DNA of 64,000 nucleotides, from the NCBI GenBank assembly GCA_037925075.1, contig JAXSNR010000001.1, positions 736,001 through 800,000 of the forward strand, in the 5' to 3' direction. The notes beneath the pieces were generated by a model. That model had not been told where the DNA came from, searched no databases, and worked only from the letters and a program-made list of their open reading frames with translations. The stretch is from Aquificaceae bacterium. Lineage in GTDB: Bacteria; Aquificota; Aquificia; Aquificales; Aquificaceae. Position 1 is the stretch's first letter; every line of letters begins with the position of its first letter. Positions 3 through 16,291 of the stretch are shown here, piece by piece. The translations under genes and the position numbers were made by a program.

Positions 3-104
3 CTTCTATCTAACTTTAAGATAGACACACAAATTACGGGCTTTGCAAAAACAAATTCCGCCTTCATAAAACTTTTGAAGTTCCTCATTGGGCTTTTCAC
101 ATGA
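3..104 (+). CDS. 3' end of an upstream gene truncated by the window edge (...LLSNFKIDTQITGFAKTNSAFIKLLKFLIGLFT*), product unknown
   Basis: Open frame from position 3 to TGA 102-104, overlapping the next ATG as ATGA, typical of translational coupling. Confidence 0.55.
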   Translation, partial: LLSNFKIDTQITGFAKTNSAFIKLLKFLIGLFT

Positions 105-1579
105 AGAGGCTACCTTTGGCTCTTGCTCTTTTTTTGGTATCTTGCGGTGGTGGTGAGCAAAGCACAGAGGGGCGTATAAGCCTTAGCATAAAGGGGGAGG
201 TAAAGGTAGAATATTTTAGCAGGGTTTTTTTGAGGGTCTCTTACCCAGAGGGTGGACCATACCAAGAGGAAAGGTATGGGAGGTTTGCACCAGGTGATGT
301 GTTGGTGTTCAACGTGGAAATTCCAGAGGGCAGAGAACGCACCATTGAGGTTTTTCTCTTTGACCCGCAGAACAAGCCTGTATATTACCGTTCTCTTTTC
401 CTACCTGAGCTTTCAAAGAAGGATACCATAAATGTGGAACTCTTGCCTTCTGAAAAAAGCATCCAAACCTTTGAAATAAGGTCAGACGGCACCATAAAGA
501 CCAGTGCAAAGCTTGAGCTTTTGAGCGAAGACCTCTACTCTTCTAACGGTTTGTATGACCGCTATGTGGTGGGAAGGGCTATAAGAGAAGGTCAAAGGAT
601 TTTCTATGTAGACGCCTTACAGGATAAGGTTGAAGTTGAACTTGAAAGAAGGCAAGAGCTTGTGGTAAGCTCGCAAACACCTCTGTATGTGACGGGTAGT
701 GCGGAGGGCTTTGTAAGAGATAGCGTGCAGGTCAGCGTTAGCAGTTCAAAGCTCACCACCGAGGGCGAAGGTTTCCTATGTGCGGTAGATGGTAATTCCA
801 TATGGTATAGCCTTTCTAAGGCTTCCACCCTTGAACTTCAAAGGGCTTGTGTAGGAAGCACCTGCACCGCATACACCGTAAATTCACCTCAGGACTTTAC
901 CCTTGCGGAGGTTCTTATATTATACAAGGGTATAGCCTGCGTGGGTGGATATTTGGAAGCTCCAAACAGGGTGAGAGTGCTTGACCTACCTCAGACTCAA
1001 AAATATCTGGGTTTTAACTATGTGAGTGACCAACCTTGTAAAACCTACGGGAAGTTATACACGCCAATTAACAATGTGGAGTTTTCAAAAATGTTCTTTG
1101 AGGTCCCACCCTTATCTTCTTGGAGGGTGTATTCGGAGGATAGGCTTTATGAGATGAAGACCTCTTGCTTTGCTTCCTCTGGGGCTTCTTTTCTCTTGAT
1201 TCCCTCTTATAGGGGCAGGCTTTTTGTGGAGAAGTTGGAAGAGGGGAAAGCTTACGGAAAGTTTCTGGACTCTCGCAGATGGTCATGGGAAGGGCATGAT
1301 ATAAAGGGCGTAAGCATAAAGGACATAGGAGATTTGTTCCTTTTGAGCTTTGAGTTGGTTGGAAACTTTAAAAGCTGTGATATGAGATTATGGTCAGAAG
1401 AGGGTGAGCTTCACATAAAAGGCATACCCACATACAGAAGACATATAAAGCTTTCTAAGGCTCTTTTTGGGAAGCCGGAGGATATGAACTACGAGCTCAC
1501 ATGCTATTTTGAGGGGGGTTATGTAAAAAACAAGCAAGAAAAAGAACCTGTTTATGGCATCTACAACCCAGCGATGTAA
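101..1579 (+). CDS. Uncharacterised lipoprotein, beta-rich with several Cys
   Basis: 492-aa ORF; signal peptide MKRLPLALALFLVS-C followed by GGG (lipobox LVSC). Confidence 0.7.
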   Translation: MKRLPLALALFLVSCGGGEQSTEGRISLSIKGEVKVEYFSRVFLRVSYPEGGPYQEERYGRFAPGDVLVFNVEIPEGRERTIEVFLFDPQNKPVYYRSLFLPELSKKDTINVELLPSEKSIQTFEIRSDGTIKTSAKLELLSEDLYSSNGLYDRYVVGRAIREGQRIFYVDALQDKVEVELERRQELVVSSQTPLYVTGSAEGFVRDSVQVSVSSSKLTTEGEGFLCAVDGNSIWYSLSKASTLELQRACVGSTCTAYTVNSPQDFTLAEVLILYKGIACVGGYLEAPNRVRVLDLPQTQKYLGFNYVSDQPCKTYGKLYTPINNVEFSKMFFEVPPLSSWRVYSEDRLYEMKTSCFASSGASFLLIPSYRGRLFVEKLEEGKAYGKFLDSRRWSWEGHDIKGVSIKDIGDLFLLSFELVGNFKSCDMRLWSEEGELHIKGIPTYRRHIKLSKALFGKPEDMNYELTCYFEGGYVKNKQEKEPVYGIYNPAM

Positions 1580-1596
1580 TGTTATAATATAAACTT

Positions 1597-3567
1597 ATGA
1601 GGCTTACCCAAGAAAAGGTCTTGGAGACCTTTAACAAAAACGTGGATTTCCTTTCAAGATACTACCCTCAGCTGCTTGAAAAACTCAATATTCCCAAGGA
1701 CAGTATAAGGGTAAGCCTCGACCCACAGGGCAGGATCGACGCCTTTATTGGTAGTTTAATGGTGTATGGAGGAGACGCCTATAAAAAGTCCTTAGAGCAA
1801 GTGTATCGCTTTGATGCACTACCTATTAGGTTTATGCCAAACCTTCATATATCTTCTTCCGCAGACGAAAAGCTAATATCCTATAGGACTAAGGCAAAAA
1901 TGGAAAAAGTGGTGGGCACGGAAATAAAATTTCCCCAATACCCACCAGATAAAAACATCCCCCTTTTAATATCCATAGGCTTAGGCTTTGGGTTTCATAT
2001 AGATATGTTGAGAAAAATGTACAAAATACAGCACATGATCATCATAGACCTGCCCATTTTTGCACACCTAAGCCTATATACCATGGACTGGAAGGATTTA
2101 GTGGAGGAATTTAACAAACAGGATAAGAGCATCACCCTGTTTATAGGAGAAGACTTTTTCAAACCAGAAACCATAGATAATACAGTACAAGAGCTTATCA
2201 ATGCCTTTAATAGAATAGGTCCCATGTTGACTTATTGGGGGTACTACTTTGAACATTTGAAGTACAACCCACCCGTTAGATTTTCGGAGTTTTTGGCAAA
2301 GACGCCGGCTATCAGTCAGTTGTACAAAGGCTTTTGTGATGACGAGCTTTGGTCTCTTGAATGGACATTGGAAAAAATAGAACGTTCTATACCCGCATAC
2401 TATGGAGGCTACACCATCCCACGAGGCTATACCGCCTTTGTGTTGGGAGCAGGTCCATCTTTGGACAAAGCCATTGAATTTATACAACGTTATAAAGGCA
2501 AGGCGGTAATCTTTTCCTGTGGTTCCACAATAACCGCATTGGAAAGGGTTGGCATACTGCCAGACTATCATGTGGAGACAGAGAGGACAAAATACACTTA
2601 TGACATACTTGCTGAGGTTAACAGGGAATTTTTGAAGGACATCATCTTTATTACAAACAACCCAACATGGACGGAGTGCTTTGACCTGTTTAAGGAAGGT
2701 TATATGTTTTTAAAGCTTAACGATACGGGTGGCATACTTCTTGCCAAGTATGGTGGGGTTCCTATAAGGATACGGCATACGGGACCAACGGTAACCGCAG
2801 GGGGTGTTGCCCTTGCTGCGGAGTTTGGCTTTGAGGAAATCTACCTCTTTGGAGTAGATTTAGGTAAAAAAGCCACACAAGAGCACCACTCTAAACTGAC
2901 CAACTACTATAAGAGCAACAGCATGCTTTCAAAAATGGTGCCCGAGTTGGATATACCCTACGAGGCAGTTAATGGTGGCTTGGCTTATACAAACATTTGG
3001 TTTTTAGAAACTGCCCAAAGCATAGAGGCTATTGCCCGAAAATTCAATGTTAGAATATACAATGCCTCTGACGGAATAAATATAAGTGGGACTATTCCCA
3101 TAAGGCTGGAAGATATAAACATGGAAAGCAAGCCAGAAATTGACAAAGAATACATAAAAAGTGTTATAAGAAGCAATTTTAGTATGAATTATACGCAATA
3201 TATAAATAGGGAAAATATGGGATACATACTTACAAAAGTTATAGAACAAGTAGATGAGCTTATTGCAATTGCCAAGAGATATACGGAGATGGATTATAGG
3301 AACTATACAGATTTGTTATCTTACTTCACTATGTTTAACTACAGCCTTAAACATTGTGATGACGTACTATATCATCTGATATTCCACGATACGCACACTT
3401 GGACCACTGCGGTGGTGGGAGCTTCTGCGACCGTAGGACCTGAGGAAAGGGACAGGCTGGTAAAGGAGTTCTGGCATATATACATACAGTATCTAAGGGA
3501 GATAAAAGAATATTTAGAAGCTCTAAGGGGGAGGTTTGCCTATCAGGGTGCAAAGGCTATGGGTTGA
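1597..3567 (+). CDS. Motility-associated factor (Maf/DUF115, MAF_flag10) family glycosyltransferase
   Basis: Motifs IGLGFGFHI, AFVLGAGPSLD, IFSCGST..AL...GILPDYHVETER, GPTVT, FGFEEIYLFGVDLG and IYNASDG match the Maf flagellin glycosyltransferase family. Confidence 0.85.
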   Translation: MRLTQEKVLETFNKNVDFLSRYYPQLLEKLNIPKDSIRVSLDPQGRIDAFIGSLMVYGGDAYKKSLEQVYRFDALPIRFMPNLHISSSADEKLISYRTKAKMEKVVGTEIKFPQYPPDKNIPLLISIGLGFGFHIDMLRKMYKIQHMIIIDLPIFAHLSLYTMDWKDLVEEFNKQDKSITLFIGEDFFKPETIDNTVQELINAFNRIGPMLTYWGYYFEHLKYNPPVRFSEFLAKTPAISQLYKGFCDDELWSLEWTLEKIERSIPAYYGGYTIPRGYTAFVLGAGPSLDKAIEFIQRYKGKAVIFSCGSTITALERVGILPDYHVETERTKYTYDILAEVNREFLKDIIFITNNPTWTECFDLFKEGYMFLKLNDTGGILLAKYGGVPIRIRHTGPTVTAGGVALAAEFGFEEIYLFGVDLGKKATQEHHSKLTNYYKSNSMLSKMVPELDIPYEAVNGGLAYTNIWFLETAQSIEAIARKFNVRIYNASDGINISGTIPIRLEDINMESKPEIDKEYIKSVIRSNFSMNYTQYINRENMGYILTKVIEQVDELIAIAKRYTEMDYRNYTDLLSYFTMFNYSLKHCDDVLYHLIFHDTHTWTTAVVGASATVGPEERDRLVKEFWHIYIQYLREIKEYLEALRGRFAYQGAKAMG

Positions 3568-4334
3568 TCAAGACTTACCCTTTCGGGGTTTCTTTGTAGG
3601 TAGGCGTCTATAAGCCTTTTGTAGTTGTAGAGGGAATGCAGATGGTAGTATATGGCTCTTATATAACCCTTTTGTTCAAAATCCCTTAGGACTGTTTGGG
3701 GAAGCTCCATAAGGGCTTTCTCATCTACCGCATTGAAGGATACACTTATGCCCTTGTAGGTAAAGGTTCCGGGCCTTATAAGGTCATATTCAACCAAAGC
3801 TTGCACGAACAGGCGGGTTTGTTCATAGTCTTGTAGGAAGTTTATGCCCGGCTGTACAAAATGCACCATGAAAAGGGGGTTCATCTCCTCTTTTGACAGA
3901 AGCACGGGCTCACCCTCTACATCTGACCATCCGGGACAGGTGAGGTCTATGTTTACAAGGGTTCTTCCCGTTTGGTCCTTGACGGGGCTAAAGGGGTATT
4001 GCTTGCAAGATGTTGGCTTGTCTTCACCCAAGATGCACCCAAAGCCCTCTTTTAGATATACACAGCTTCCATCCACGTCTATGTCCAGTTTATAGAAAAG
4101 GTTCATCTCAAAGCTTGCGGGCTGGTCTTCACTGTACTTTATCAGGGGGAAGATTATGGGAAAGTAGAGAGATAGGTGACTTATCTCAGAAAAACCAACG
4201 GAGGACCTCACGGGCGCGTAGCAACAACTCTTTGGACAGCTTGCTCCCAAACATCTCCATTTGAGGTTTTTGTGCTTTTCCGTGTCAAGAAGTTCTGTTA
4301 TTTCAAAAAGCTTTTTTGAAGGCTTGTCGCTCAT
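3543..4334 (-). CDS. YkgJ/FliB-like cysteine-cluster protein (CxxCxxCC family)
   Basis: WRCLGASCPKSCC, CVYL...C...KPTSCKQYPF and IDLTCPG motifs; start moved to ATG 4334, which overlaps the upstream stop as ATGA. Confidence 0.75.
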   Translation of the reverse strand: MSDKPSKKLFEITELLDTEKHKNLKWRCLGASCPKSCCYAPVRSSVGFSEISHLSLYFPIIFPLIKYSEDQPASFEMNLFYKLDIDVDGSCVYLKEGFGCILGEDKPTSCKQYPFSPVKDQTGRTLVNIDLTCPGWSDVEGEPVLLSKEEMNPLFMVHFVQPGINFLQDYEQTRLFVQALVEYDLIRPGTFTYKGISVSFNAVDEKALMELPQTVLRDFEQKGYIRAIYYHLHSLYNYKRLIDAYLQRNPERVSLDQPIAFAP

Positions 4335-4732
4335 GGTATTATGTACCACCTCTCTTTTATTTTTACTGCAAAATTTTTGACCACCGTAGGCTCTCCCTTT
4401 GGAGTGTGCAAGCTTATTTCCAAAAGAACCACATCCTGACCGTGCGTGCTCTTTATAGTTTTGGCGACGGTGGCGGTTATGTTGATGGGTTTTGTGTACA
4501 GCCTTGTGTATTGTTCCTTTTTTTCGCAAAAGGTCTTTGCTTGCTCCTCCGAAGCGGGCATAAATATATTATATGCCTGAACCGCCAAATTGCTCTTGGC
4601 AAACTCCATACACCTCTGGGGCTCAAAAAACATCACCTGCCAGAAGGCAACCCCCAAGTCTTTTGGGTCCTCGTAGGCCTTTTGGGAACAGGCAAACATA
4701 AAAAAAGCAAAAAGCAACCAAAGCAATCTCAT
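4331..4732 (-). CDS. Small lipoprotein, hypothetical
   Basis: MRLLWLLFAFFMFA-C lipoprotein signal at ATG 4732; GGAGG SD upstream. Confidence 0.7.
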   Translation of the reverse strand: MRLLWLLFAFFMFACSQKAYEDPKDLGVAFWQVMFFEPQRCMEFAKSNLAVQAYNIFMPASEEQAKTFCEKKEQYTRLYTKPINITATVAKTIKSTHGQDVVLLEISLHTPKGEPTVVKNFAVKIKERWYIIP

Positions 4733-4743
4733 AGAAAACCTCC

Positions 4744-4771
4744 AAAAAAGAAAAAGCCCCCAAAAGGGGGC
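4744..4771 (-). terminator. Rho-independent terminator after the 736-aa lipoprotein gene
   Basis: On the minus strand a GCCCCC-TTTT-GGGGGC hairpin (4756-4771) is followed by TTTTTCTTTTTT, 7 nt after the stop codon. Confidence 0.85.
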
Positions 4772-4778
4772 ACAAGAC

Positions 4779-6989
4779 TTAGAACTTGATGAAGGGCACG
4801 CCAAGGGCGTTGTTAGGTCCTACACCGCCAGCACCATTGAAGCTATTAAAGACCTTAAAGCAAAGACCCACTTGAGAACCGCTTCCTGGAAACTGTAAGC
4901 TGTTGGCACCAAGAATAAGGTATTCCCAAGTGTTTCCAGAGGGGCAGAAGGATACAGTTCCTCTGTTGGCGGCAGAGTCAAGGTAGTTGTAAAGGGCGTT
5001 GTTGTTGTTGGCAACATCACCAAAGGTTGGAGGATTTATCCCTGCACCTGCACCCACTATATTAACAGGAGTAACCGCGTCTGTGTTGTAGTTGACGTAG
5101 TTGTAGGTAAAACCACCTGGACCGGGTACAGGGGGTACAGGGTTAACGCATGCCCGGTCTGTTGGGCTATATATCTGCACAAGTTGACCAGCAAAAGCAG
5201 CACCACCACAGTTGGCTCCGTTAAAGTGTGCCTCCAAAACAGCGTTTTTAGGCGTAGGTGCGGCGTTGTGAGTATAGTGGCGTAGATTATTAGCTCCTCT
5301 CCTAATTACAAAGGCGTTGGTGATATTTCTGTCAAGGTTGTTTGAGAATACATCACCAGCAAGAGCATCACTATCTTCACCTTGGATCAGACATGTTGGG
5401 TTTCCACCCACCACAAAGCTAATAGAGGCTACTTGGTTGTCGTTAGTAGCTGCTGCACCAAAGCGGCTATTAGTGCTTATCATACCGATCAGTATGCTGT
5501 TTGTCCTTGTGTTCTTTACTCTTACAACGCCATTGTTCAAAGACACTACAAAGCTTGCTGCCAAAGTCTCCGTGTTTCCTACATTGCAATTCTGAGCACC
5601 ACCAGGAAGAGCAGCGGCTCCAAAAACTACTGCTGTGTGAGCATTGCTAAGTGACCTCACCGTAAGGTTTGGTGCAAACTGGAAGTAGGCAATTGCGGTA
5701 CCATTGGCTCCCCCTATCGCAAGGGCTCCGTTGTCAAGACCTATAACACTAAACACTGGTGTGTTTACCGCATTTGCCACGTTAATTGGATATCCTGCTC
5801 CTTGAACTACGCCCATGTTGTTAAGGGCCGCAACAAAACCTGTAGCTGCTGATATATTAGTGCCACAACTTGTTGCTGTTGCGTTGCGTGCACCCACAAA
5901 TAGGTTGTTGTTGGCATCCACATCAAAGGCGGCGATGGATGAAACACCAATGTTCCCAACCCTTATTTCTATGCCAGCAGCACCGCATTGAAAGGTGTTA
6001 CCATTTACTTGGAACTGTGTAACTGTGTTGCCAGAAACATTAAAGGCGGTCAGTGCACATGATACTTGCTGACCGGCGAGTATACCAGCACCAGCTACTT
6101 CTGGTGAGTTCATCACAACAAGGTATGAGCCGTTTGGAGCTTTGTTTATGATGGTTCTGTTGCCAAATTGATTTAGAGGGGAGGTGAATACTTGGACTAA
6201 GTCTCCGTTATCTGTGACAAGGTGTATGGGAAGTGATTTTGTGTTATCACCCACAAGGAATGTGGTGTAGGAGCCCGCGGGTCTGGTGGCGGTAACGTTG
6301 TCTATGCGAACTACTGGGTTTTGTCCATTTGATATGGCTTGTGCAAAAGTGCCGTCGCTTTTTACCACAAAGACGTTGGGGTTTGTGGCAGCATCTCGCA
6401 CAATGGCATAAGCGTTGTTTATTGCAAAGACATTCTGCCCGTTGATATCTTGAGCAACTTCAATCTGTTGAAACTGTGTTGCGGAGACTTTCTTCGCGGT
6501 GCAGTCCTTTGTCACAACATATCCGCCGTCTGTGGCGTTCATGAGGAAGTAAGGCCTGTTACGTACAAGCTCGTTGGTTACGTTTGCATAAGCATGTCCT
6601 GCAAAGGTGAGGCTTAGGTCCTTGGCGGTGGCGTTTGAAGCATCAACGCAAAAGACTTGGTTGGTTGCGGTTCTTACCAGTAGGTTGCTGTTGTTAAACT
6701 GGTATAGGACTGCGGTTATGTCCTTGCCCGCAAGGTCTTTTACCTCCACCTTGTTGCCAGATCCGTCCACAAAGTAGTATCTGTCTTGTCCGGCTCCTGC
6801 GGGGGAAAGCCTTGTAAAGACCGCGGGAGTACCTAGGCTTCCAACCGTGGGGGTGGTTGTGGTTGGCGTAGTTGTGGATGGTGGTGGGGTTGTGGTGGCG
6901 CTAGCGGTTCCACCACCGCCTCCGCAAGAGGCAACGAGTGCCCCCAAGCTTAGCACTGCTGATGCTAAGAGTAGGCTTTTCTTGCTCAT
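4779..6989 (-). CDS. Large Asn/Gly/Ala/Thr-rich surface lipoprotein (candidate major surface or S-layer-like protein)
   Basis: Lipobox LVAS-C then GGGGG, Thr/Pro linker, long beta-rich low-charge body, strong SD AAGGAGG; function is inferred. Confidence 0.7.
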   Translation of the reverse strand: MSKKSLLLASAVLSLGALVASCGGGGGTASATTTPPPSTTTPTTTTPTVGSLGTPAVFTRLSPAGAGQDRYYFVDGSGNKVEVKDLAGKDITAVLYQFNNSNLLVRTATNQVFCVDASNATAKDLSLTFAGHAYANVTNELVRNRPYFLMNATDGGYVVTKDCTAKKVSATQFQQIEVAQDINGQNVFAINNAYAIVRDAATNPNVFVVKSDGTFAQAISNGQNPVVRIDNVTATRPAGSYTTFLVGDNTKSLPIHLVTDNGDLVQVFTSPLNQFGNRTIINKAPNGSYLVVMNSPEVAGAGILAGQQVSCALTAFNVSGNTVTQFQVNGNTFQCGAAGIEIRVGNIGVSSIAAFDVDANNNLFVGARNATATSCGTNISAATGFVAALNNMGVVQGAGYPINVANAVNTPVFSVIGLDNGALAIGGANGTAIAYFQFAPNLTVRSLSNAHTAVVFGAAALPGGAQNCNVGNTETLAASFVVSLNNGVVRVKNTRTNSILIGMISTNSRFGAAATNDNQVASISFVVGGNPTCLIQGEDSDALAGDVFSNNLDRNITNAFVIRRGANNLRHYTHNAAPTPKNAVLEAHFNGANCGGAAFAGQLVQIYSPTDRACVNPVPPVPGPGGFTYNYVNYNTDAVTPVNIVGAGAGINPPTFGDVANNNNALYNYLDSAANRGTVSFCPSGNTWEYLILGANSLQFPGSGSQVGLCFKVFNSFNGAGGVGPNNALGVPFIKF

Positions 6990-7021
6990 GTCTGTACCCT
7001 CCTTTAAAGGAATTTAAGACT

Positions 7022-7050
7022 ATTATAACAGAGCTTTTTTGCCCTGTCAA
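7022..7050 (-). promoter_or_regulatory. Consensus sigma70 promoter for the 736-aa lipoprotein
   Basis: Minus strand reads TTGACA-gggcaaaaaagctctgt(17 nt)-TATAAT, with an extended -10 TG. Confidence 0.85.
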
Positions 7051-7099
7051 GTAGTATGTGGCTTTTTTTGACCAAAAGGTTCATCTAAAATATTAGCCT

Positions 7100-8236: not shown

Positions 8237-9956
8237 GGACTGCCATACCAAAAACAAAAAGCCAAGCCCATAGGTTGGAAGAAGCACCCGCATTACAACC
8301 ACCACCTCCACCGCTTTCAACGGGTGGGTTTAGGTTTTCAAGGATAACTATGGGGTCCTCTATAAATAGATCCGTGCTGTCAGCGTCGTAGATAGAGTTG
8401 TCGTATATCACAAAGGTTATGGTGGAGCCCAGTATGCTAACCTGGGATGTTATGTCGTAGATTTGATTTCCCACAAGTTTATAAACCCTGCTACCCGCGG
8501 GTATACGGGTTGGTAAAATCAACCTTACGGTGGCAAGGCGAGCTATATTAGCCACCTGAACCCTTATTCTAAAAGCAGGGTAGTTTATGGCATAGCCCGG
8601 TGGTGGGCTTACTGGCGGTTGAAAGCTCTCAAAGGCAAGTATGTTGGCGTCTGTTTGTAAAAGGATGCTACCTGCTGGTGAGGTTGTGCTGGAATAGTAT
8701 GGGAGTGGTGGTAGGTTGTCGGGTAGTGGTGGCGGTGGCTGGTTATCAGGTGGCGGCTGTTGGCTTTGAGATTGCTTGAACTTTGCGGTGCAGGTTTTGT
8801 CCGCGGCTATGTTTGTTAGTATGCATGTGGCGTTGGTGCAAGAAGAACAATCCCCAAGCCACCCGTCAAACTCATACCCAGAACTTGGATTGGCAGTAAG
8901 GCTAACATCTGCCCCATGCTCGTATTCTCCATCGCCTGATACGGTACCCGAGCCCGAGGGTTGGACGCCAACGGATACATTGTAAAGTGCCTCAAAGGCT
9001 CCTGCGTCGCATTTTTTGTTGTTTTTGTTCCTGTCTTTGCCCCTTTGGTCTTTGGTGATATCAACTACTAATATGTCCGTGCAATCTGTCACGGAGTTTA
9101 TAGCAACAGAAGATGAGTTTAGTTTGTAAACTCTTGTGCTTCCTCCATGATAGTCAAGCGTATCAAGGGCTAATTCCTGCTGTGTCTTTTGGGTAAAGCC
9201 CGTACATCCCCCTATACTTGTGCTATAAAGCACGCCAAAGCCTTGCACCGTGCCAGCACAAAGATTGCCCGTGTGGTCAAAGATGGAGTTTTTGACTTGC
9301 AAGGTGCCACCAGCTTGTGCCAAAGCGTCTGCGGAGTTCCCGCTTGCGGTGATAAAGGCTATTCGTGTTATCCCTGCGTTGTTATAGACTATACTGCCTG
9401 CGGGTGCGGTGTTGTTGGCAAAGGTGCAGTTGGTTATCTCCACAGTTCCCCCGTTGTTGTAGATGGTGCCGTTGCCTGTAGCGTTGTTGTAACCTATAAA
9501 GGAGTTTGAAATTTTGAGGGTCCGCCCTGAGCCAACCGCAACCACCGAGCCGTTGGTCGTACTACGCCCATTGATAAGGTTTAAGTTCCTTATCTCCAAA
9601 GTGCCACTGCCTGTTAGTGTAAAGAGCTGAACCGTATTATTCCCACTTATACTGACCCTTACACCAGAGCCATCAATGGTGAGATTGCCACCCGTAAAAT
9701 CGACTGACAAAGAAGATGAGAGCGTGATAACCTGCCCGTTTAGGCTTTGTGCAAAATTGATAGTATCATTTCCAAGAGTCCCTTGCACTTGACATTCTGT
9801 ATAGGTTGAAATACTGTTAGTGTTGGCGATTTTCAAAGCTTCCCTTAAATTGCATTTACCATCGCCGGGATTATCACTGTCCCCCGCATCATCAACGGTG
9901 ATGGTCGCAGAAAAGCTTATGGCTATCAAGCTTAGTAAGACAAGTAAGTATATCAT
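8211..9956 (-). CDS. Secreted CSLREA-domain / beta-helix adhesin-like protein with C-terminal Gly-rich Cys sorting signal
   Basis: Signal peptide from ATG 9956 (SD GGAGGTG); CNLREAL motif; choice-of-anchor-Q-like DQRG...CDAGAFE; bacterial repeat (TANPSSGYEFDGWLGDC); Pro linker; GGGGGCNAG-TM-RKLR tail. Confidence 0.8.
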   Translation of the reverse strand: MIYLLVLLSLIAISFSATITVDDAGDSDNPGDGKCNLREALKIANTNSISTYTECQVQGTLGNDTINFAQSLNGQVITLSSSLSVDFTGGNLTIDGSGVRVSISGNNTVQLFTLTGSGTLEIRNLNLINGRSTTNGSVVAVGSGRTLKISNSFIGYNNATGNGTIYNNGGTVEITNCTFANNTAPAGSIVYNNAGITRIAFITASGNSADALAQAGGTLQVKNSIFDHTGNLCAGTVQGFGVLYSTSIGGCTGFTQKTQQELALDTLDYHGGSTRVYKLNSSSVAINSVTDCTDILVVDITKDQRGKDRNKNNKKCDAGAFEALYNVSVGVQPSGSGTVSGDGEYEHGADVSLTANPSSGYEFDGWLGDCSSCTNATCILTNIAADKTCTAKFKQSQSQQPPPDNQPPPPLPDNLPPLPYYSSTTSPAGSILLQTDANILAFESFQPPVSPPPGYAINYPAFRIRVQVANIARLATVRLILPTRIPAGSRVYKLVGNQIYDITSQVSILGSTITFVIYDNSIYDADSTDLFIEDPIVILENLNPPVESGGGGGCNAGASSNLWAWLFVFGMAVLRKLRTLS

Positions 9957-9975
9957 AGTTGTCACCTCCCTTTCT

Positions 9976-10647
9976 TTATCTGCATTGGTCTTGTTCTCCG
10001 TAGTCCGCAAGTCTTATAGCAAGGCTGTATTTTATGGTTTTTTTCTTGCCAGAGTATATTTCCACCACATCAAACTCAAAGTTTGCCAAGGCATTGCAGA
10101 TGCTGGGGTATGAAGCTCTTTGAAGGAGTGTTGGACACCCATCTTGGTTTATGTATATGTAATTTATTATTTCCGTGATTGCTATTTTCATATCTTGTGT
10201 TATGGGCTGTATGGTCACGGTGGAATCGCCAGTAGGCTGTAAAACCGCACCTACGGGAAATTCATATATGCCGGGTATACAACCTGTAAAGCTAACCTTG
10301 TACTTTTCCACAAGGACTGGGGAGGGAAGTTCCACCACCGGCTCTCCTTTGACGTTTTTTAGAGGCTCAACATTAAAGGTAATATCCACGTTTTCTGCTC
10401 TGTATACCGCGCCAATACAAACATCGTTTGCGACTGCAATAGCGTTGCAACCTGTGGAAGGAGCAGAGAGGACTGGTGCCTGTACTGGTGTATGGATAAC
10501 CACATCGCTTTCCAGTGGGTTTGGTTGTGCGTTGGCTATAACCACCGTCACCGTGTCAAAGGTTGGGGTATAGTCGGACAGTCCTGTGCCACCGCAAGAA
10601 AAGGCACCTAAAACTATGGGCATGCTCGCAACCGCAAGCTTTTTCAT
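9976..10647 (-). CDS. Hypothetical lipoprotein
   Basis: MKKLAVASMPIVLGAFS-CGG lipobox; SD AGGAGG; several Cys. Confidence 0.7.
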   Translation of the reverse strand: MKKLAVASMPIVLGAFSCGGTGLSDYTPTFDTVTVVIANAQPNPLESDVVIHTPVQAPVLSAPSTGCNAIAVANDVCIGAVYRAENVDITFNVEPLKNVKGEPVVELPSPVLVEKYKVSFTGCIPGIYEFPVGAVLQPTGDSTVTIQPITQDMKIAITEIINYIYINQDGCPTLLQRASYPSICNALANFEFDVVEIYSGKKKTIKYSLAIRLADYGEQDQCR

Positions 10648-10680
10648 TTTTCCCTCCTTTTGCTATTATATGATTATAAT

Positions 10681-11766
10681 ATGTCACCTCAAGCTCTAAG
10701 CAAGGTCAAATATGGCAGTTTCCTAAAAGGCAATCTACTAAAAGGTAGGGTAGACCAGTACGAGCTTTCTCTGGTTTTGGTTGAGCTTTCTACCCTTATG
10801 GCTTCTGGGCTTTCCTTGATAAACGCCCTTAGGTTGATAAAAGACCAGACCTCCAACAGGGCTATAAAGGACGGCTTAGATAAGGTAATGCAGGAGATAG
10901 AGAAAGGCAGAAGCCTATACAGAGCCTTTTCTGAGGCTGGCATCTTTCCAGAGTTTTTTATTGAGATGTTAAGAACCGCAGAAAGCGGAGAAAACCTTAA
11001 ACAGGTGCTAAAAATAGCAGGCCAGTATCTTCAAAAAACAGTGGAAGCAAGAGCCAAGTTTTTTACAGCAATCGCCTATCCGATTTTTGTAATATTTGCA
11101 AGCCTCTTGGCAGTCCTTGTGGTGGTCAAGGTGGTGGTGCCAAAGATTGCCGGCGTCCTCGAAAGCCTTGGGAAAGAATTACCCCTTATAACAAAAGCCC
11201 TTGTGCTTTTTTCTGTTTTTCTTTCCTATTTTGTGTATCTTATCCCAATCCTTGCGGTGCTATATGTTTTCAGGCACAGGTTCATAAAAAAAGAGTTTTG
11301 GGATAGGTATATGCTTGGTGTCCCCATTCTTGGGAGGCTTTCCCTCTATTACAACCTTTCTCGTTTTGCAAGCAGTCTTTACATGTCCCTTTCTTCCAAC
11401 ATCCCCATTACAAGAGCCATAGCACTTAGCTTGGGTAGTATATCCAACGTCTATCTTAGGGCTTCTCTAATTGGTGTGGAGCAAGAGGTGGCAAAGGGAA
11501 AGAGCCTTAGCCTTGCCTTGAGGGAAAGGAGGGTGCTTCCTGAGACCTTTCTTAACCTTCTTGCCATGGGAGAGCGTAGCGGTGAGTTGGAAAAGAGCCT
11601 TATGATGATTTCTGAGCTTTATGAACGTCAGGCGGAGAGGGTGATTTCCTTTTGGCTTAGGTTTGCGGAGCCTTTGGCTATGCTTGTGGTGGGTGCCTTG
11701 GTGGCTGTGGTAGTCCTTAGCGTGGTTTTGCCCCTTTCCGAGATATCCGCGGGCGTAAGAAGATAG
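10681..11766 (+). CDS. gspF: Type II secretion system inner-membrane platform protein F (GspF/PilC family)
   Basis: Two T2SSF repeats (ELSTLMASGLSL...AESGENL; GERSGELEKSL...AEPL); first gene of the gsp cluster; start uncertain (TTG 10660 or ATG 10681). Confidence 0.9.
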   Translation: MSPQALSKVKYGSFLKGNLLKGRVDQYELSLVLVELSTLMASGLSLINALRLIKDQTSNRAIKDGLDKVMQEIEKGRSLYRAFSEAGIFPEFFIEMLRTAESGENLKQVLKIAGQYLQKTVEARAKFFTAIAYPIFVIFASLLAVLVVVKVVVPKIAGVLESLGKELPLITKALVLFSVFLSYFVYLIPILAVLYVFRHRFIKKEFWDRYMLGVPILGRLSLYYNLSRFASSLYMSLSSNIPITRAIALSLGSISNVYLRASLIGVEQEVAKGKSLSLALRERRVLPETFLNLLAMGERSGELEKSLMMISELYERQAERVISFWLRFAEPLAMLVVGALVAVVVLSVVLPLSEISAGVRR

Positions 11767-11781
11767 CCTTATAATTTTTCC

Positions 11782-12183
11782 ATGAGACAAAAAGGTTTTA
11801 CACTGATAGAGCTTTTGGTGGTTATCATCATCCTTGGCATCCTTGCGGCCATTGTGGTTCCCCGTATAACGGGCAGGGTGGATGAGGCAAAGGTAGAAGC
11901 CACAAGGGTACAGCTAAAAGCCGTAAAGGACGCCCTTGAACAGTACAAGCTGGACAACGGCTTTTATCCCACCACGGAGCAAGGGCTTAGGGCTCTTGTG
12001 GAAAAGCCCGCCACACCACCAAACCCCACAAGGTGGAGGCAGTACTTGGACAAGGTGCCAAAGGACTCATGGGACAGAGAGCTTATATACATGTCTCCGG
12101 GTATTGGAAGGCCCTTTGAGCTTAGGTCTATGGGTCCAGACGGTAAAGAGGGCACAGAGGACGACATAGATGTTTGGAAATAA
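11782..12183 (+). CDS. gspG: Type II secretion major pseudopilin G
   Basis: GFTLIELLVV prepilin motif, ALEQYKLDNGFYPTTEQGLRALV, PKDSW, SMGPDGKEGTEDDI. Confidence 0.95.
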   Translation: MRQKGFTLIELLVVIIILGILAAIVVPRITGRVDEAKVEATRVQLKAVKDALEQYKLDNGFYPTTEQGLRALVEKPATPPNPTRWRQYLDKVPKDSWDRELIYMSPGIGRPFELRSMGPDGKEGTEDDIDVWK

Positions 12184-12454
12184 GGGCTTTACACTTCTTG
12201 AGCTTATGGTTGCCATAGTGGTGCTTGCGGTGGGCTTTTCTGTGGTTTTTGAGGTCCTATCAAAGGCAAGGCTTGATTACGCACAGGCTAACAGCCTTGA
12301 AAGGGATATGATAGAGCTTAACAAGGCCCTTTTGGAGGGAAAAACGGAGGACCTCCTGTCTCAGGCAAGAACCCTTGAAGACTACCCACAGGTGGAGGAG
12401 GTCTCATACAGGCTTGGCTCTGCGGAGTTTTTCCTGTATGGGCTTAAAAAATGA
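12170..12454 (+). CDS. Minor pseudopilin (GspI-like)
   Basis: GFTLLELMVAIVVLAV N-methylation motif; short; follows gspG. Confidence 0.75.
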   Translation: MFGNKGFTLLELMVAIVVLAVGFSVVFEVLSKARLDYAQANSLERDMIELNKALLEGKTEDLLSQARTLEDYPQVEEVSYRLGSAEFFLYGLKK

Positions 12455-12933
12455 AAAGGGGCTTTACCCTTCTTGAGGTGCTTCTTGTGGTGGCCCTTAT
12501 GGGCGTGTTCTTTGGGGTGCTTTCTTATGGCTTTTACTCCTCTGTGAGAAACTCCTACCTCCTTATGGAGTCTGCGGAGGCAACAAGGGAAGAGGTAATG
12601 CTCTTTTGGAACCTTCAGAGAAAGCTAACCGGTGCCCAAGACCTTTATCTCAAAAGGGATGCCCTTTTTATGACCACCACCGCAGGGGACTACTACCAAG
12701 GGGTTGTAAAGTGTGCCTATCTGTACAAGGATGGCTGGCTTTACTACTATGAGTTCCCGTACCCTTACGGAGACATAACCTTTTACGAAGAGGACAAGCT
12801 TATAAGGCTTGGAAGGTTCAAAGAGCTGTCCTTTAGGGCCTTTGCGGGAGGGCAGTTTTTGGAGGAATTCAGGGGCAAGCCCAATTGGGTGGAGATAAAA
12901 GGTGAAGGAAGGGTCCTTATGGTAGCCCCTTAG
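12451..12933 (+). CDS. Minor pseudopilin (GspJ-like)
   Basis: MKRGFTLLEVLLVVAL prepilin motif; position in cluster. Confidence 0.75.
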   Translation: MKRGFTLLEVLLVVALMGVFFGVLSYGFYSSVRNSYLLMESAEATREEVMLFWNLQRKLTGAQDLYLKRDALFMTTTAGDYYQGVVKCAYLYKDGWLYYYEFPYPYGDITFYEEDKLIRLGRFKELSFRAFAGGQFLEEFRGKPNWVEIKGEGRVLMVAP

Positions 12934-12949
12934 GTTATAATATTATCAA

Positions 12950-13696
12950 ATGCGGATTTTCTACCCTCTATACTTGTTTTCCCTTGCTTTGCTTATGCTT
13001 GCGTATGTTTCCTTTGTAAGTAGCAGGGTGGAGGTACCTCAGCTTGTGAGGGAAGAGGTTCAAACCCAAAGCCTTTTTGCAAAGTTTGAAGGTTTGTATC
13101 CAAAGCAAGTAAAAGAGGAGGAAAAGGTGCCCACCGTAAGCCTGATCGCAACCGCCACTGGCTACGTCCCTCTTGCCCTTGCGGAGGTGGACGGACAGAC
13201 AAAAACCCTCAGAATTGGTTCTCAGGTGGGTGGCTACAAGGTGGCTTCCATAGAAAGAAACTATATATTGCTTTCAAAGGGTGAAAAGAAGCTTGCGGTG
13301 GGCTTTACCTTTGGTCCAAAACCCACTCCACAGCAAACCTCTTCTCAGGGAGCTTCTTTGCCGCAGGCAAGCAGAAGCCTTCAAGCAAGCCTTCCAAAGG
13401 GAGAGTTAGAACGCATAACCTCAGACCCCGGGATCATGTTTAGGATGATAAGGCTTGTGCCCTTTGTGCAAGAAGGAAGAACCAAAGGCTTCCTCTTTGA
13501 GTGGGTGGAGCCGGGTAGTATTTTTGAAAGGGCTGGCATAAAGGTTGGGGATGTTTTGCTTTCTATAAACAACCAAGAGATAAAAAGTGGTGAGGACGCC
13601 TTTAGGATCTTACAGGTGCTTAGAAACGAAAACAGTATAAAATTGAACCTACAAAGAGGAAATGAGATTTTAGAACTTTCTTTGAGGGTGGAATGA
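12950..13696 (+). CDS. gspC: Type II secretion protein C with PDZ domain
   Basis: N-terminal TM, HR domain, PDZ (PGSIFERAGIKVGDVLLSINN); directly upstream of the secretin. Confidence 0.85.
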   Translation: MRIFYPLYLFSLALLMLAYVSFVSSRVEVPQLVREEVQTQSLFAKFEGLYPKQVKEEEKVPTVSLIATATGYVPLALAEVDGQTKTLRIGSQVGGYKVASIERNYILLSKGEKKLAVGFTFGPKPTPQQTSSQGASLPQASRSLQASLPKGELERITSDPGIMFRMIRLVPFVQEGRTKGFLFEWVEPGSIFERAGIKVGDVLLSINNQEIKSGEDAFRILQVLRNENSIKLNLQRGNEILELSLRVE

Positions 13697-15660
13697 TGAA
13701 AAGGTTTGTGGTTTTCCTTGTGCTTTTTTTGGTGCTTGCACCCGTTGGTCATACTCAGACCGCGGAAGAGCTTCAAAGACAAGCTCAGGAACAAAAAAGA
13801 GCCGGAAAGGTCTTTCTCAACTTTCAGAACGCGGACATATCCTTGGTGGTCAAGTTTATGTCGGAGCTAACTGGCAAAAATATAATCCTTGACCCAAACG
13901 TAAAGGGAACCATTACCATAAGCTCCGCAAAGCCTGTTAGCCTAAGTCAGGCATGGGAGCTTTTTGTCATGTCTCTTACCCTTCAGGGCTATGGAGTGGT
14001 GGAAGAGAAAAACTTTGTGCGCATAGTACCCATAGCACAGGCTGTGCCCCTTGCGGAGCCAAGAAGGCCCTCCACTGGAGCGGACATAATCATATACCTC
14101 TATGGTGCGGAAAACACACAGGCAAGCCAGCTTCAGCAAGCCATTCAGCCCTTCCTTTCCCCCTTTGCAAAGGTGAGCATACACGCACAGTCCAACACTC
14201 TCATAATAGCGGACATAGCAAGGAACATAGAAAAGATAAAGGGCATAATAAAGGAGCTTGACTCTCCACAGAAGACCCTTAAGATAAAGCTCTACCCCCT
14301 CCAGAGGGCAAAGGCGGAAAACGTGCTTCAGAGTGTGCAGGCGGTTGTAAGCACCCTACAGCAACAGATAGGTATTCCGGGTGTAGCTACCATAAGCAAG
14401 GATGCCAACGCAATTATTGTGGTCGCCCGCGAGGATGTGCATGCTTTGGTTGAAGAGGTTATAAAAACCATAGACCAATCCACTCAGATTACAGAAGACA
14501 GGAGCTTTTATGTCCTACCTCTTAAGTTTATCTCCGCGGAGGAACTTCAAAAAAGCCTTCAGAGCCTTCTCTCTGGAGTAAGCCCGGTTATCACACAGCC
14601 CACCCCACCAACCCAACCGCAAGAGATAAGAGGTCTTGAGACACCCCTCAGAAAGGAGCCCACAGCTCAGCCCAAACAACCCCAGCCCATACCTGCCATA
14701 CAGACGAAGGAAGGCATGCGTATAGGCTTTGATAGAGGCACAAACTCCTTGCTTATATACGCAACTCCTCAGGAGTTTGAAGGACTAAAGGCTCTTGTGG
14801 AAAGGCTTGATGTGCGTAGAAGGCAGGTGCTTATTGCAGCCTCCGTGGTGGAGATGTCCACGAGCAAAGCCTTTGAGCTTGGAGTAAGATGGCAGGCCAT
14901 AGGCTCCAAGGGTGGTGCAGGCTTTGGTGTGGGAAGTGTTCAGGACCTGTACAGCTCCATACTAACTGGCAACTTTGTGCTTGGTTTTATAAACAACGTG
15001 GGAAGAACCATCACCATAGGTGGAGCGACCCTTTTCTTCCCAGACCTTGTGCTTCTTTTATCTCTTCTTGAGAAGGGCACCGGCTTTAATCTCATCTCAA
15101 ACCCAAAGGTGCTTACCCTTGACAACCAACCCGCGGAGATAAAGGTGGGTCAGGTGGTACCCTTTGCCTCTGGTGTAAAGTTTGACATAAACGGACAGCC
15201 CGTTATAACCTACGACTACAAGGAGGTGGGGCTTGACCTCAAGATTACACCCACCATAGCGGAAAACAACCTAAGGCTTATGATAGGCTTGCAGGTGCAG
15301 GAGATTGTGGATTTTATAAGGCCTCAGGTGGGACAGCTAAGCTATGCGGTGCCAGTGACCTCCAACAGACAGGTAAATTCAGATGTGGTGGTAGAAAACG
15401 GTCAGACCATAATCATTGGCGGGCTTGTTAGCACAAGAAGTATAAGCACTCAGGAGGGAGTGCCGGGTCTTAAGGATGTTCCCCTTTTTGGAAGGCTTTT
15501 CAGAAGGGATACCCAGACGGAAGATAAGGTTTCTCTGTTTATATTTATAACGCCCTATGTGGTAGAAAGCCCAGAAGAGCTTAGTAAGATAACCCAAGAA
15601 CATCAAAAGTTGGCGGAGGAGCTTAAAAAACTTATGGAAAAGCAGAAGAAGAATGAATAA
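13693..15660 (+). CDS. gspD: Type II secretion secretin D
   Basis: LNFQNADI N0 domain, N1-N3 repeats, LDVRRRQVLI, PKVLTLDNQPAEIKVGQ, VPGLKDVPLFGRLF. Confidence 0.95.
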   Translation: MMKRFVVFLVLFLVLAPVGHTQTAEELQRQAQEQKRAGKVFLNFQNADISLVVKFMSELTGKNIILDPNVKGTITISSAKPVSLSQAWELFVMSLTLQGYGVVEEKNFVRIVPIAQAVPLAEPRRPSTGADIIIYLYGAENTQASQLQQAIQPFLSPFAKVSIHAQSNTLIIADIARNIEKIKGIIKELDSPQKTLKIKLYPLQRAKAENVLQSVQAVVSTLQQQIGIPGVATISKDANAIIVVAREDVHALVEEVIKTIDQSTQITEDRSFYVLPLKFISAEELQKSLQSLLSGVSPVITQPTPPTQPQEIRGLETPLRKEPTAQPKQPQPIPAIQTKEGMRIGFDRGTNSLLIYATPQEFEGLKALVERLDVRRRQVLIAASVVEMSTSKAFELGVRWQAIGSKGGAGFGVGSVQDLYSSILTGNFVLGFINNVGRTITIGGATLFFPDLVLLLSLLEKGTGFNLISNPKVLTLDNQPAEIKVGQVVPFASGVKFDINGQPVITYDYKEVGLDLKITPTIAENNLRLMIGLQVQEIVDFIRPQVGQLSYAVPVTSNRQVNSDVVVENGQTIIIGGLVSTRSISTQEGVPGLKDVPLFGRLFRRDTQTEDKVSLFIFITPYVVESPEELSKITQEHQKLAEELKKLMEKQKKNE

Positions 15661-16291
15661 GGTAAGCCTTAGGTCAATTTTTATAAACTTGATTTTCCTT
15701 TTCCTTTTGCTGGTCCTTTTGGTGCTTTTAACTTTTCCAAAATTTCTTCTGCTTGAAAGAGAGCTTGCAAAGGCTGGGCTATACCTTACCGCAAGGGAAG
15801 TCAAAGAAGATATTAGGGGTATTACTCTAAAAGAGGTGAACCTTTACGATAAAAGTTCAAAGCTTGCCCGCTTTGACAGTCTTAGGATTGACCTTAGACC
15901 CTTTGGTGTGGGCATATCAGCCCTTTGTGAGGGCAAAGGTTTTTGGTTAGATTGGTCTATTACTTCAAAAAGGCTAAAAGCTCAAGACTTCACCTGCTTT
16001 TCTGTTGCTGAAAGTATAAGTGCAGATCTGGTCATAAAAGAGGGTTTATATGGCAAGATGTGGCTAAAGGGTATAAGGGTTCAGGATACAAAGGTGGAAG
16101 AGCTGTCCCTTGAGATGAAGGGAAGGGTCTTTACCGCAAAAGCTAAGGTTATGGGTTTTGAACTTGTTGGAGATGGGCAGGTGGTTTTTAACCCTTCTAA
16201 TTTCTTAGAGTCAAAGATAAACGGCAGGCTTTCTGGCGGTATGAACCTTACCATCTCCGGCACATTAGAAAAGATACAGCTTACAAGGTAG
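15653..16291 (+). CDS. GspN-like type II secretion accessory protein
   Basis: N-terminal TM with TFP motif, beta-rich periplasmic part ending LTISGTLEK; follows gspD. Confidence 0.5.
   Translation: MNKVSLRSIFINLIFLFLLLVLLVLLTFPKFLLLERELAKAGLYLTAREVKEDIRGITLKEVNLYDKSSKLARFDSLRIDLRPFGVGISALCEGKGFWLDWSITSKRLKAQDFTCFSVAESISADLVIKEGLYGKMWLKGIRVQDTKVEELSLEMKGRVFTAKAKVMGFELVGDGQVVFNPSNFLESKINGRLSGGMNLTISGTLEKIQLTR

Follow-up and report, generated by a model that had tools for sequence, protein, structure and literature searches.

What does a Maf-type glycosyltransferase do when its gene lies away from the flagellin locus, among lipoprotein genes that adjoin a type II secretion system (T2SS)? The question is raised by a stretch of 64,000 nucleotides (the window; positions 736,001 to 800,000 of contig JAXSNR010000001.1, C1:736001-800000) in the 1.6-Mb, 99.95% complete genome of an Aquificaceae bacterium, GCA_037925075.1, here G000. 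An earlier note on this DNA had proposed that the Maf, a Cys-cluster protein and a glycosyltransferase of family GT9 modify a T2SS-exported lipoprotein of 736 residues, LP736, and so build a glycosylated surface layer or matrix. Nothing in the analysis shows a surface layer or an actual modification of the lipoprotein. What the genomes do bring out is the repeated placement of Maf, of one GT9 subfamily and of SapC-family proteins beside the genes of flagellin, pilin and a secreted major protein, which is, as far as gene order can tell, a new arrangement of known enzyme types. In what follows, G-numbers denote the compared genomes, g1 is the genus of G000, g5 and g6 are other genera, and f2 is another family.

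The open reading frame (ORF) coordinates were checked, and families were assigned by Pfam and NCBIfam scans with gathering or equivalog cut-offs. All the genes that had been listed for the locus are present at their coordinates; lipobox-like signal peptides, read from the sequence, open four ORFs (at 101, 4732, 6989 and 10647), and the Maf and the GT9 were confirmed by the family scans. The likely starts of three genes were revised, to 4334 (263 aa), 4732 (133 aa) and 9956 (581 aa), with a clear Shine-Dalgarno sequence at two of them. Contigs 99+% alike from four further DNA runs (two studies) span pieces of the stretch, which is therefore no assembly artefact.

The window Maf (1597..3567, plus strand) passes the Pfam cut-offs for Maf_flag10_N and PF01973, the Maf N-terminal domain and GT-A core, and it aligns over residues 13-528 with the solved Maf 5MU5 (E 1.6e-38), with the catalytic core intact. 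G000 is flagellated and encodes flagellin, so that the argument of the earlier note from the lack of flagellin and flagellar genes in the window is moot. The genome has three PF01973 genes, 38-43% identical, of which the window Maf is the third. The first is transcribed divergently from fliC, at the head of the pse genes; pseI, pseB, pseC and pseF-like genes, as read from the sequence, provide a pathway to CMP-activated pseudaminic acid (CMP-Pse) beside fliC. Another is inside a pilMNOPQ-pilA-pilA2 / pilX-W-V-fimT-pilY1 cluster (C2:617903-619837, L003). A flagellin gene close to the window that might explain the third Maf was looked for and did not turn up; flagellin has its own adjacent Maf.

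Across the order, 31 of 121 genomes contain an above-cut-off Maf, and a protein query matched a further 4 of 27. The contexts, read for all Maf-bearing genomes except G104, fall into a few kinds. Maf lies beside fliC in 18 genomes including G000, in pilin clusters in G000, G043, G095, G101 and G134 plus three metagenome contigs, and beside a secreted-cargo gene in G000, G109, G037, G051 and G057. It accompanies pse genes without an adjacent fliC in G069, G089 and G101, has a housekeeping context in five f2 genomes, and is at a contig edge or broken in G097, G116 and G140. The Mafs of the pilin-cluster loci (L003, L009, L013, L017, L120 and L099-L101) form one clade. The flagellin-type maf of G069 (L011:8015-9948) is split over two frames while the pse genes are kept, and this 99% complete draft gave no flagellin or FliG match. 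Apart from the three pilin-cluster Mafs, a scan of metagenomes gave a single short stray match and no copy of the window type.

Trees of the Mafs (quick and FastTree) group them by genomic context. The window Maf and P0027-P0031 form a clade with 100% support, apart from the flagellin and pilin clades, and since these relatives are full length and 50-62% identical, the window Maf is an old, kept paralogue. The Mafs of G109 and g5 at the major-cargo slot, that is, beside the gene of a major secreted protein, make up a separate clade, with tandem pairs in G037, G051 and G057. In an approximately unbiased (AU) test with 22 rows, whose groups were named after the first tree was seen, joining the two cargo-slot clades costs 79.6 log-likelihood units (p-AU 5e-36). 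Thus, recurrence of Maf beside secreted major-protein genes is seen, and, as read from these trees, Maf has come to the cargo slot on at least two occasions, and three of the genomes concerned are free of flagellin. In genus g5, none of the 7 genomes gave a flagellin match; its Maf-bearing members G037, G051 and G057 likewise gave no FliG match and do have NeuB/PseI, and G051 is a single contig, 99% complete. At L019-L021 (e.g., L020:7983-12963), the tandem Mafs of flagellin-free genomes stand beside the gene of a secreted 336-aa protein that belongs to no known family.

The divergence of the window Maf is concentrated in one domain. Compared with the flagellin-locus Mafs, its GT-A core is 62% identical and its C-terminal domain 23%, whereas among the flagellin-locus Mafs themselves the values are 85% and 63%. 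In G051, the tandem Mafs have an identical core over the aligned stretch and differing C-termini. Mafs are described as flagellin-specific, with the determinants of acceptor choice an open question (10.1101/2022.03.25.485807; PMC11339370; 10.1101/2023.12.03.569772). For Shewanella Maf-1 and FlmG, the acceptor is described as bound by accessory domains (10.1101/2023.12.03.569772), and in C. jejuni, pseudaminic acid is reported on FliH, Maf3, Hup and FtsA (10.1101/2025.07.13.664564). In the open-access literature, we found no Maf dedicated to pilin or to T2SS cargo, no non-flagellin Maf locus and no description of cytoplasmic Maf-type pilin glycosylation. From context and divergence, the window Maf probably has an acceptor other than flagellin.

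The window GT9 (7100..8236, plus strand), divergent from LP736, passes the Pfam GT9 model. It has matches at E 1e-12 in 11 of 147 other genomes, and its closest relatives adjoin fliC or pilA. In G007, G029 and G115, which have no Maf, a GT9-methyltransferase fusion and a SapC without Cys adjoin fliC. This pair stands in Maf's place beside fliC at L136:8430-11253, L137:8112-11155, L138:7811-10654 and L163:5878-9582, the last with a sulfotransferase-like gene between the two, and it is a candidate for an undescribed flagellin glycosylation module. In eight g6 genomes, the match is of the sapC-GT9-methyltransferase type; five of these loci were read (G049, G085, G033, G041, G114), and all have the pair. 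A GT9-PF13524 fusion of about 980 aa directly follows pilA in G041, G114 and G133 of the same genus (L140:10195-13161, L143:7616-10555, L142:2772-4026). A GTDB scan added two loci of other phyla, one in Thermodesulfatator near fliC and one in a Nitrospiraceae genome after csrA/fliW-like genes.

The window GT9 matches these fliC/pilA-adjacent relatives at E 1e-30 to 1e-11 and the three other GT9s of its genome at 4e-4 at best; in the tree, it groups with the former (99%, on a long branch) and apart from the latter. All 10 alignment rows keep an ALGD motif and the four C-terminal Cys unchanged, and a similar Cys motif is found in ordinary GT9s also. The label of a lipopolysaccharide (LPS) heptosyltransferase (WaaC/WaaF/WaaQ) was rejected, as the best score was 33.5 against a cut-off of 185 bits and three more GT9s are encoded elsewhere in the genome. 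G000 also encodes an HldE domain, making ADP-heptose a possible donor.

The third enzyme candidate is the 263-aa Cys protein (3543..4334, minus strand), whose start overlaps the stop of the small lipoprotein gene lp133. Its only above-cut-off family is SapC (PF07277), matched over the whole model at 90.6 against 28.9 bits (E 1.5e-25). The earlier note had called it FliB/YkgJ-like. The FliB motif is there, CX4CX3CC with eight Cys, and the family is not: CxxCxxCC (PF03692) stays below cut-off, and no NCBIfam FliB model matched at E 0.05. FliB is about 400 aa long; given the 263 aa, the full SapC match, the lack of a FliB model match and the lack of flagellin linkage, FliB membership was rejected. 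A SapC belongs to the Campylobacter fetus S-layer locus, and to our knowledge, no role has been assigned to it there. A search of the open-access literature gave nothing on SapC function, no solved SapC structure was found, and a structure-atlas search gave none usable. The Cys-SapC aligns over its length with the Cys-less SapCs at 21-26% identity, and those of the flagellin loci lack the Fe-S-type Cys set that the window form keeps. Its orthologues occur after lp133 in G101, in the cargo loci of G024, G019 and G091, and as a remnant in the T2SS cluster of G022. SapC, then, accompanies the four-Cys GT9 at flagellin loci and is found at the cargo slot in G024, G019, G091 and G101. We infer that the window Cys-SapC may be an Fe-S modifier of, or helper for, exported structural proteins. 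At L146:8552-19901 (G034), a tpsB-like gene is followed by a gene for a Cys-less SapC and then by one of >3,000 aa.

The supposed acceptor, LP736 (4779..6989, minus strand), is a hypervariable lipoprotein with a Thr/Pro-rich linker and a predicted beta-propeller. Family members, found in 9 of 148 genomes and often cut off by contig ends, are 16-66% identical; their ends are conserved, and the middle varies. A structure model from 15 sequences (mean predicted local distance score, pLDDT, 65; predicted TM-score, pTM, 0.73) is nearly all beta, and one from 4 sequences reached pLDDT 40. An atlas search gave no match at >=0.9, and the alignment found no relative in the metagenomes. The gene is equipped for strong expression. 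Its sigma-70 promoter (7022..7050, minus strand; TTGACA-17-TG-TATAAT) is a 12/12 match, one of 17 perfect sites in the genome, and is followed by a GGAGG Shine-Dalgarno sequence; right past the stop, by 8 nt, is a terminator-like hairpin of its own (4756..4771, minus strand; 6 G-C pairs and a T run). The slot is filled by two unrelated families, LP736-like lipoproteins and secreted proteins of 320-406 aa, and all 14 slot genes with a scored 5′ end (7 + 7) have 11-12/12 promoters 29-41 nt upstream. The background is 39 of 1580 genes in G000, a figure that uses first in-frame starts and may be an undercount. LP736 also has the highest N+T+S+A+G share of all G000 proteins >250 aa, above flagellin, and 2.2% Lys. 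These slot data support LP736 as a putative major surface protein. The "abundant" of the earlier note thus has support from the promoter, Shine-Dalgarno sequence and terminator, with codon bias uninformative, and not as regards abundance itself; that LP736 is both abundant and surface-exposed seems likely to us, and that it forms a crystalline S-layer seems unlikely.

The route of export is the firmest part of the picture, as it is very likely that this is a T2SS cargo locus, for which LP736 is the probable chief cargo. Core genes C, D, F, G, I, J and N lie in the window and E, L, M and K upstream (read from the sequence), with gspH not identified; gspG and gspD score above their NCBIfam cut-offs and gspF, C and N below theirs, and I and J show the prepilin motif only. 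In the 581-aa adhesin (8211..9956, minus strand), the choice-of-anchor Q, choice-of-anchor U and InlB-B-repeat domains all exceed their cut-offs. Its proposed description as a CSLREA protein with a Gly-Cys-transmembrane (TM)-basic tail held for the tail, GGGGGC-TM-basic, and is weak for the family, with a CNLREA motif and a score of 15 against 25 bits, below the cut-off. GGGGC-x-TM-basic tails occur in three G000 proteins (the adhesin, a subtilase and one more) and in ten more distinct proteins of relatives. The third protein (C2:709092-710717, with a GGGC tail) is unlinked to the T2SS and apparently lacks a signal peptide at its first start. A 161-aa CPBP protease with EExxFR, FxxxH and HxxxN motifs is encoded after gspK, and orthologues occur in 69 of 121 genomes, including 49 of the 51 with a gspF orthologue; among CPBP-negative genomes of the same family, 12 of 13 have no gspF orthologue. 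Shortened CPBP frames (about 125 aa) were seen in two single-contig genomes without a gspF orthologue (G001 C1:1260552, G004 C1:1355018), possibly through decay after T2SS loss.

The earlier assignment of the tail to GlyGly-CTERM (with rhombosortase) was rejected, the tail being of Cys type and paired with a CPBP protease. With MYXO-, JDVT- and Synerg-CTERM proteins and their myxosortases, G000 has in common a single invariant Cys, a TM helix and a basic tail, as well as a CPBP protease with EExxFR/FxxxH/HxxxN motifs in the gsp operon and co-occurrence with the T2SS (10.1101/2023.06.07.544157; PMC11980579). In contrast to JDVT-CTERM, its GGGGC motif has no Asp-Pro, and the protease falls below all Mrt cut-offs; the orthologue in G022 has its best matches to Mrt_core (39 against 100) and MrtJ (37.7 against 75). 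JDVT-, MYXO-, Synerg- and GlyGly-CTERM models gave no match to the G000 tails, and the main text of the preprint by Haft (10.1101/2023.06.07.544157) does not name Aquificae. By analogy, this would be a T2SS with lineage-specific Cys-tail sorting that works like MYXO-/Synerg-CTERM and fits no named model.

How conserved is the arrangement? gspF orthologues, sought by protein query (a TIGR02120 search mixed gspF with pilC), are in 51 of 121 genomes, and 41 of the 50 other neighbourhoods were read, up to 20 kb, many on short contigs. A loose cassette recurs in several genera and two families (G107, G124, G126, G145, G024, G095, G025, G053, G019, G091), consisting of a pair of extracytoplasmic function (ECF) sigma and anti-sigma genes, the lipoprotein gene lp492, the slot gene, a small lipoprotein gene, a gene of a Cys-tailed protein, lp223 and sapC. 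The glycosylation add-on at the slot varies: a Maf in G000, G109 and g5; a PF13524 enzyme divergent from the lipoprotein gene in G107 and, with a contig break in between, probably in G145; a locus for an ABC-exported glycan in G095 and G025; and none seen in others. At L036 and L037 of G095 and G025, a second, divergent T2SS is present, and next to the cargo cassette are genes for glycan export of the ABC type, several glycosyltransferase genes and those of a GNAT and an initiating sugar transferase.

Our proposal, to which we give an even chance of being right, is that the third Maf, the GT9 and the SapC are flagellin-type cytoplasmic modifiers redeployed to T2SS-exported LP736. That the Maf in particular acts on LP736 is likewise a toss-up, the acceptor having been assigned from neighbourhood and divergence only. 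The consensus promoter would drive strong synthesis of LP736, for the most part from a transcript of this one gene. Maf-type enzymes are described as soluble and cytoplasmic (10.1101/2022.03.25.485807), so modification would have to precede Sec export; at that stage, Maf would put CMP-activated pseudaminic acid, made by the fliC-adjacent genes, on Ser/Thr, GT9 could add a second sugar (heptose being available), and the Cys-SapC would act as an Fe-S modifier or helper. LP736 would then be lipidated, fold in the periplasm and be placed on the surface by the T2SS. The CPBP protease would cut the GGGGC-tailed adhesin, the subtilase and the third protein, which would follow the same route. The modifiers would be optional add-ons that differ between strains.

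A number of observations weigh against this proposal. Linkage of the whole block, which the earlier note had proposed to look for in relatives, is absent: maf is in none of the 41 gspF neighbourhoods, the T2SS genes are reshuffled, and a conserved 16-kb operon was rejected, the block being unique to G000 among the genomes examined. None of the 8 other genomes with a clear LP736-family gene shows a maf next to it, the slot gene of G109 is a weak family match (E 7e-5, hhalign 42%), and the gene that comes after sapC in G101 and G089 is an unrelated one. The GT9 was found at E 1e-12 in 0 of 24 g1 genomes searched. The second Cys-SapC of G000 (C1:459933-460637), kept in most congeners, follows tsf-pyrH-frr with no surface context, and this housekeeping setting weakens any specific reading of SapC. 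As for LP736 itself, its fold matches are generic beta-propellers (best Z 10.9, root-mean-square deviation >5 A), with no S-layer fold among the structure matches; its codon bias (rank 167 of 889, with flagellin at 62) does not single it out; and the 14 promoter-bearing slot genes fall in two families and hence are not independent. A Thermocrinis type strain has been reported to lack a regular surface layer (PMC3035279), and the open-access literature yielded nothing on surface layers of Aquificae. Finally, the Maf of C. botulinum, CbMaf, is described as requiring folded flagellin-like loops, which it accepts when grafted onto an unrelated beta-sandwich, and as refusing non-cognate flagellin (PMC11339370); LP736 would be unfolded before export.

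Other explanations must be set beside the redeployment to LP736. The three proteins could still serve flagellin or type IV pilin, adding a second glycoform, for example against phages, from genes parked in a variable surface-gene island. The genome encodes both flagellin and pilins, it was from the same-genus radiation of flagellin and pilin Mafs that the window Maf arose, every known relative of the window GT9 points to fliC or pilA, and Campylobacter keeps several Mafs for flagellin (10.1101/2022.03.25.485807). Yet, the flagellin and pilin genes both have a Maf next to them, the window Maf is down to 20-23% identity in its C-terminal domain, and three flagellin-free genomes keep two Mafs beside a secreted gene and NeuB/PseI, though pili are present there; we consider this explanation unlikely. 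It is distinctly unlikely that the enzymes are non-flagellar and act on another cargo, be it the GGGGC-tailed adhesin, the subtilase or the pseudopilins. The adhesin, at 19.5% Ser+Thr, abuts the GT9; the Mafs of G037, G051 and G057 are among gspH/I/J/K-like genes, and both enzyme families lie beside pilA elsewhere. In G109 and g5, however, it is the major-slot gene, and not that of a Cys-tailed protein, that adjoins maf or is separated from it by one gene, and 8 kb lie between the window Maf and the pseudopilins.

A glycan route in which no protein is modified directly deserves mention since it would solve the topology problem: Maf and GT9 would build a lipid-linked glycan or an LPS variant. 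The Maf core resembles GT42 sialyltransferases, GT9s are LPS heptosyltransferases, the window GT9 profile matches only WaaC/WaaF-type structures and not TibC, lpxB lies 1 kb beyond gspN, a Wzy_C/WaaL-type ligase is in the genome, and the slot of G095 and G025 is served by the exported glycan locus. What makes this very unlikely is that three other GT9s are available for LPS, that the window subfamily follows fliC/pilA and not LPS genes, that the locus has no flippase or polymerase gene, and that the characterised Mafs in the literature examined all transfer to Ser/Thr. Lastly, the block might be a strain-specific pile-up of functionally unlinked surface genes in an insertion hotspot, as the reshuffled T2SS genes, the uniqueness of the block and the atypical codon use of maf (rank 830 of 889) would suggest; given that the core cassette recurs across genera and families and that the Maf clade is old and intact, we rate this as highly improbable.

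Modification of a surface protein by a cytoplasmic partner encoded next to it has precedents. HMW1C is a dedicated cytoplasmic glycosyltransferase encoded beside HMW1, a Sec-exported adhesin, and the substrates of TibC/AAH and HMW1C are modified in the cytoplasm before Sec export. In the BAHT enzymes (AAH/TibC on AIDA-I/TibA), too, a soluble glycosyltransferase is encoded beside a Sec-exported surface protein, and like the window GT9, it is described as a GT-B enzyme with the catalytic Asp in a GD motif and a four-Cys C-terminal motif (PMC4358343). The Cys spacing differs, and the cargo in the window is a T2SS lipoprotein, whereas that of BAHT is an autotransporter. Neither the single GT9 nor its 10-row profile gave a TibC/Aah match among PDB/NCBIfam matches, so the likeness is one of logic, not of membership.

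With the Mafs of Magnetospirillum (5MU5), Aeromonas, Campylobacter, Geobacillus, Clostridium and Shewanella, the window Maf shares the three-domain layout and GT-A core, and its genome has the CMP-Pse pathway. It departs from the known flagellin Mafs as an extra paralogue off the flagellin locus, with a diverged C-terminal domain, beside a Sec lipoprotein, with a sister in a pilin cluster and relatives in flagellin-free genomes. The CX4CX3CC motif with eight Cys is the described [4Fe-4S] signature of FliB, a lysine methylase of flagellin (PMC8598068), and the window SapC has it in common with FliB; the candidate acceptor is, however, poor in Lys. Like other SapCs, the window form matches the whole model and adjoins genes of highly made exported proteins, and it differs from those of flagellin loci in its Fe-S-type Cys set.

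The remaining features of the locus are as follows. lp492 (101..1579, plus strand), a lipoprotein gene of no family with an ECF sigma/anti-sigma pair directly before it (read from the sequence), travels in relatives with this pair and the major-cargo slot; homologues 25-33% identical occur in G107, G124, G126, G095, G025 and G053. A sigma-70-like promoter for maf (1560..1588, plus strand; 10/12, with a TG extension) has the ATG 9 nt on and no Shine-Dalgarno sequence. Relatives of lp133 (4331..4732, minus strand; 133 aa) are found after the large lipoprotein gene in G124 and G109 and ahead of sapC in G101 (hhalign 93%); a link of lp133 to the C-terminal domain of 570-590-aa lipoproteins was rejected (hhalign under 4%). 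Relatives of the lipoprotein gene lp223 (9976..10647, minus strand) precede Cys-tailed proteins in G095, G025 and G053 and are next to one in G107. The T2SS genes, all on the plus strand, are gspF (10660..11766, N-terminally short, like most same-genus orthologues), gspG for the major pseudopilin (11782..12183), gspI-like (12170..12454) and gspJ-like (12451..12933) minor pseudopilin genes, gspC with a PDZ domain (12950..13696), the secretin gene gspD (13693..15660) and a gspN-like gene (15653..16291).

Upstream of the window, the locus continues with gspE, L, M and K, the CPBP protease and the GGGGC-tailed subtilase (names read from the sequence, with later BLAST/NCBIfam searches on orthologues). 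The subtilase gene, a degenerate subtilase-like gene and the ECF pair occupy C1:732029-735480; such a pair, a possible regulator, follows the cargo cassette in many relatives. A sigma-28 (fliA-like) gene is 9 kb upstream of the window, three tandem paralogues of a 160-210-aa family lie at C1:722320-723790, and a coiled-coil/nuclease-like ORF with paralogues elsewhere is at 18944-19576 of the window.

What would the arrangement mean for the family? A broader idea, to which we would give somewhat less than even chances, is that the Aquificaceae have a toolkit of Maf, four-Cys GT9 and SapC that is interchangeable among flagellin, type IV pilin and a T2SS-exported lipoprotein. On this view, Maf would be an O-transferase of nonulosonic acids in general, with the choice among Sec-exported acceptors made by its C-terminal domain; the GT9 would be a hitherto undescribed glycosyltransferase of flagellin, pilin or lipoprotein; and SapC would have a fold related to that of FliB, in Fe-S and Cys-less forms. 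With close Maf paralogues at three places, next to flagellin, to pilin and to a secreted lipoprotein, this one genome is a natural experiment on Maf specificity, and if the proposal is true, thermostable O-transferases of the sialyl type that act on proteins other than flagellin would be of use in glyco-engineering. The locus offers a testable role for SapC and for an unnamed GT9 subfamily, would extend Cys-tail/myxosortase sorting to Aquificota, and presents LP736 as a candidate major surface protein of hot-spring Aquificaceae.

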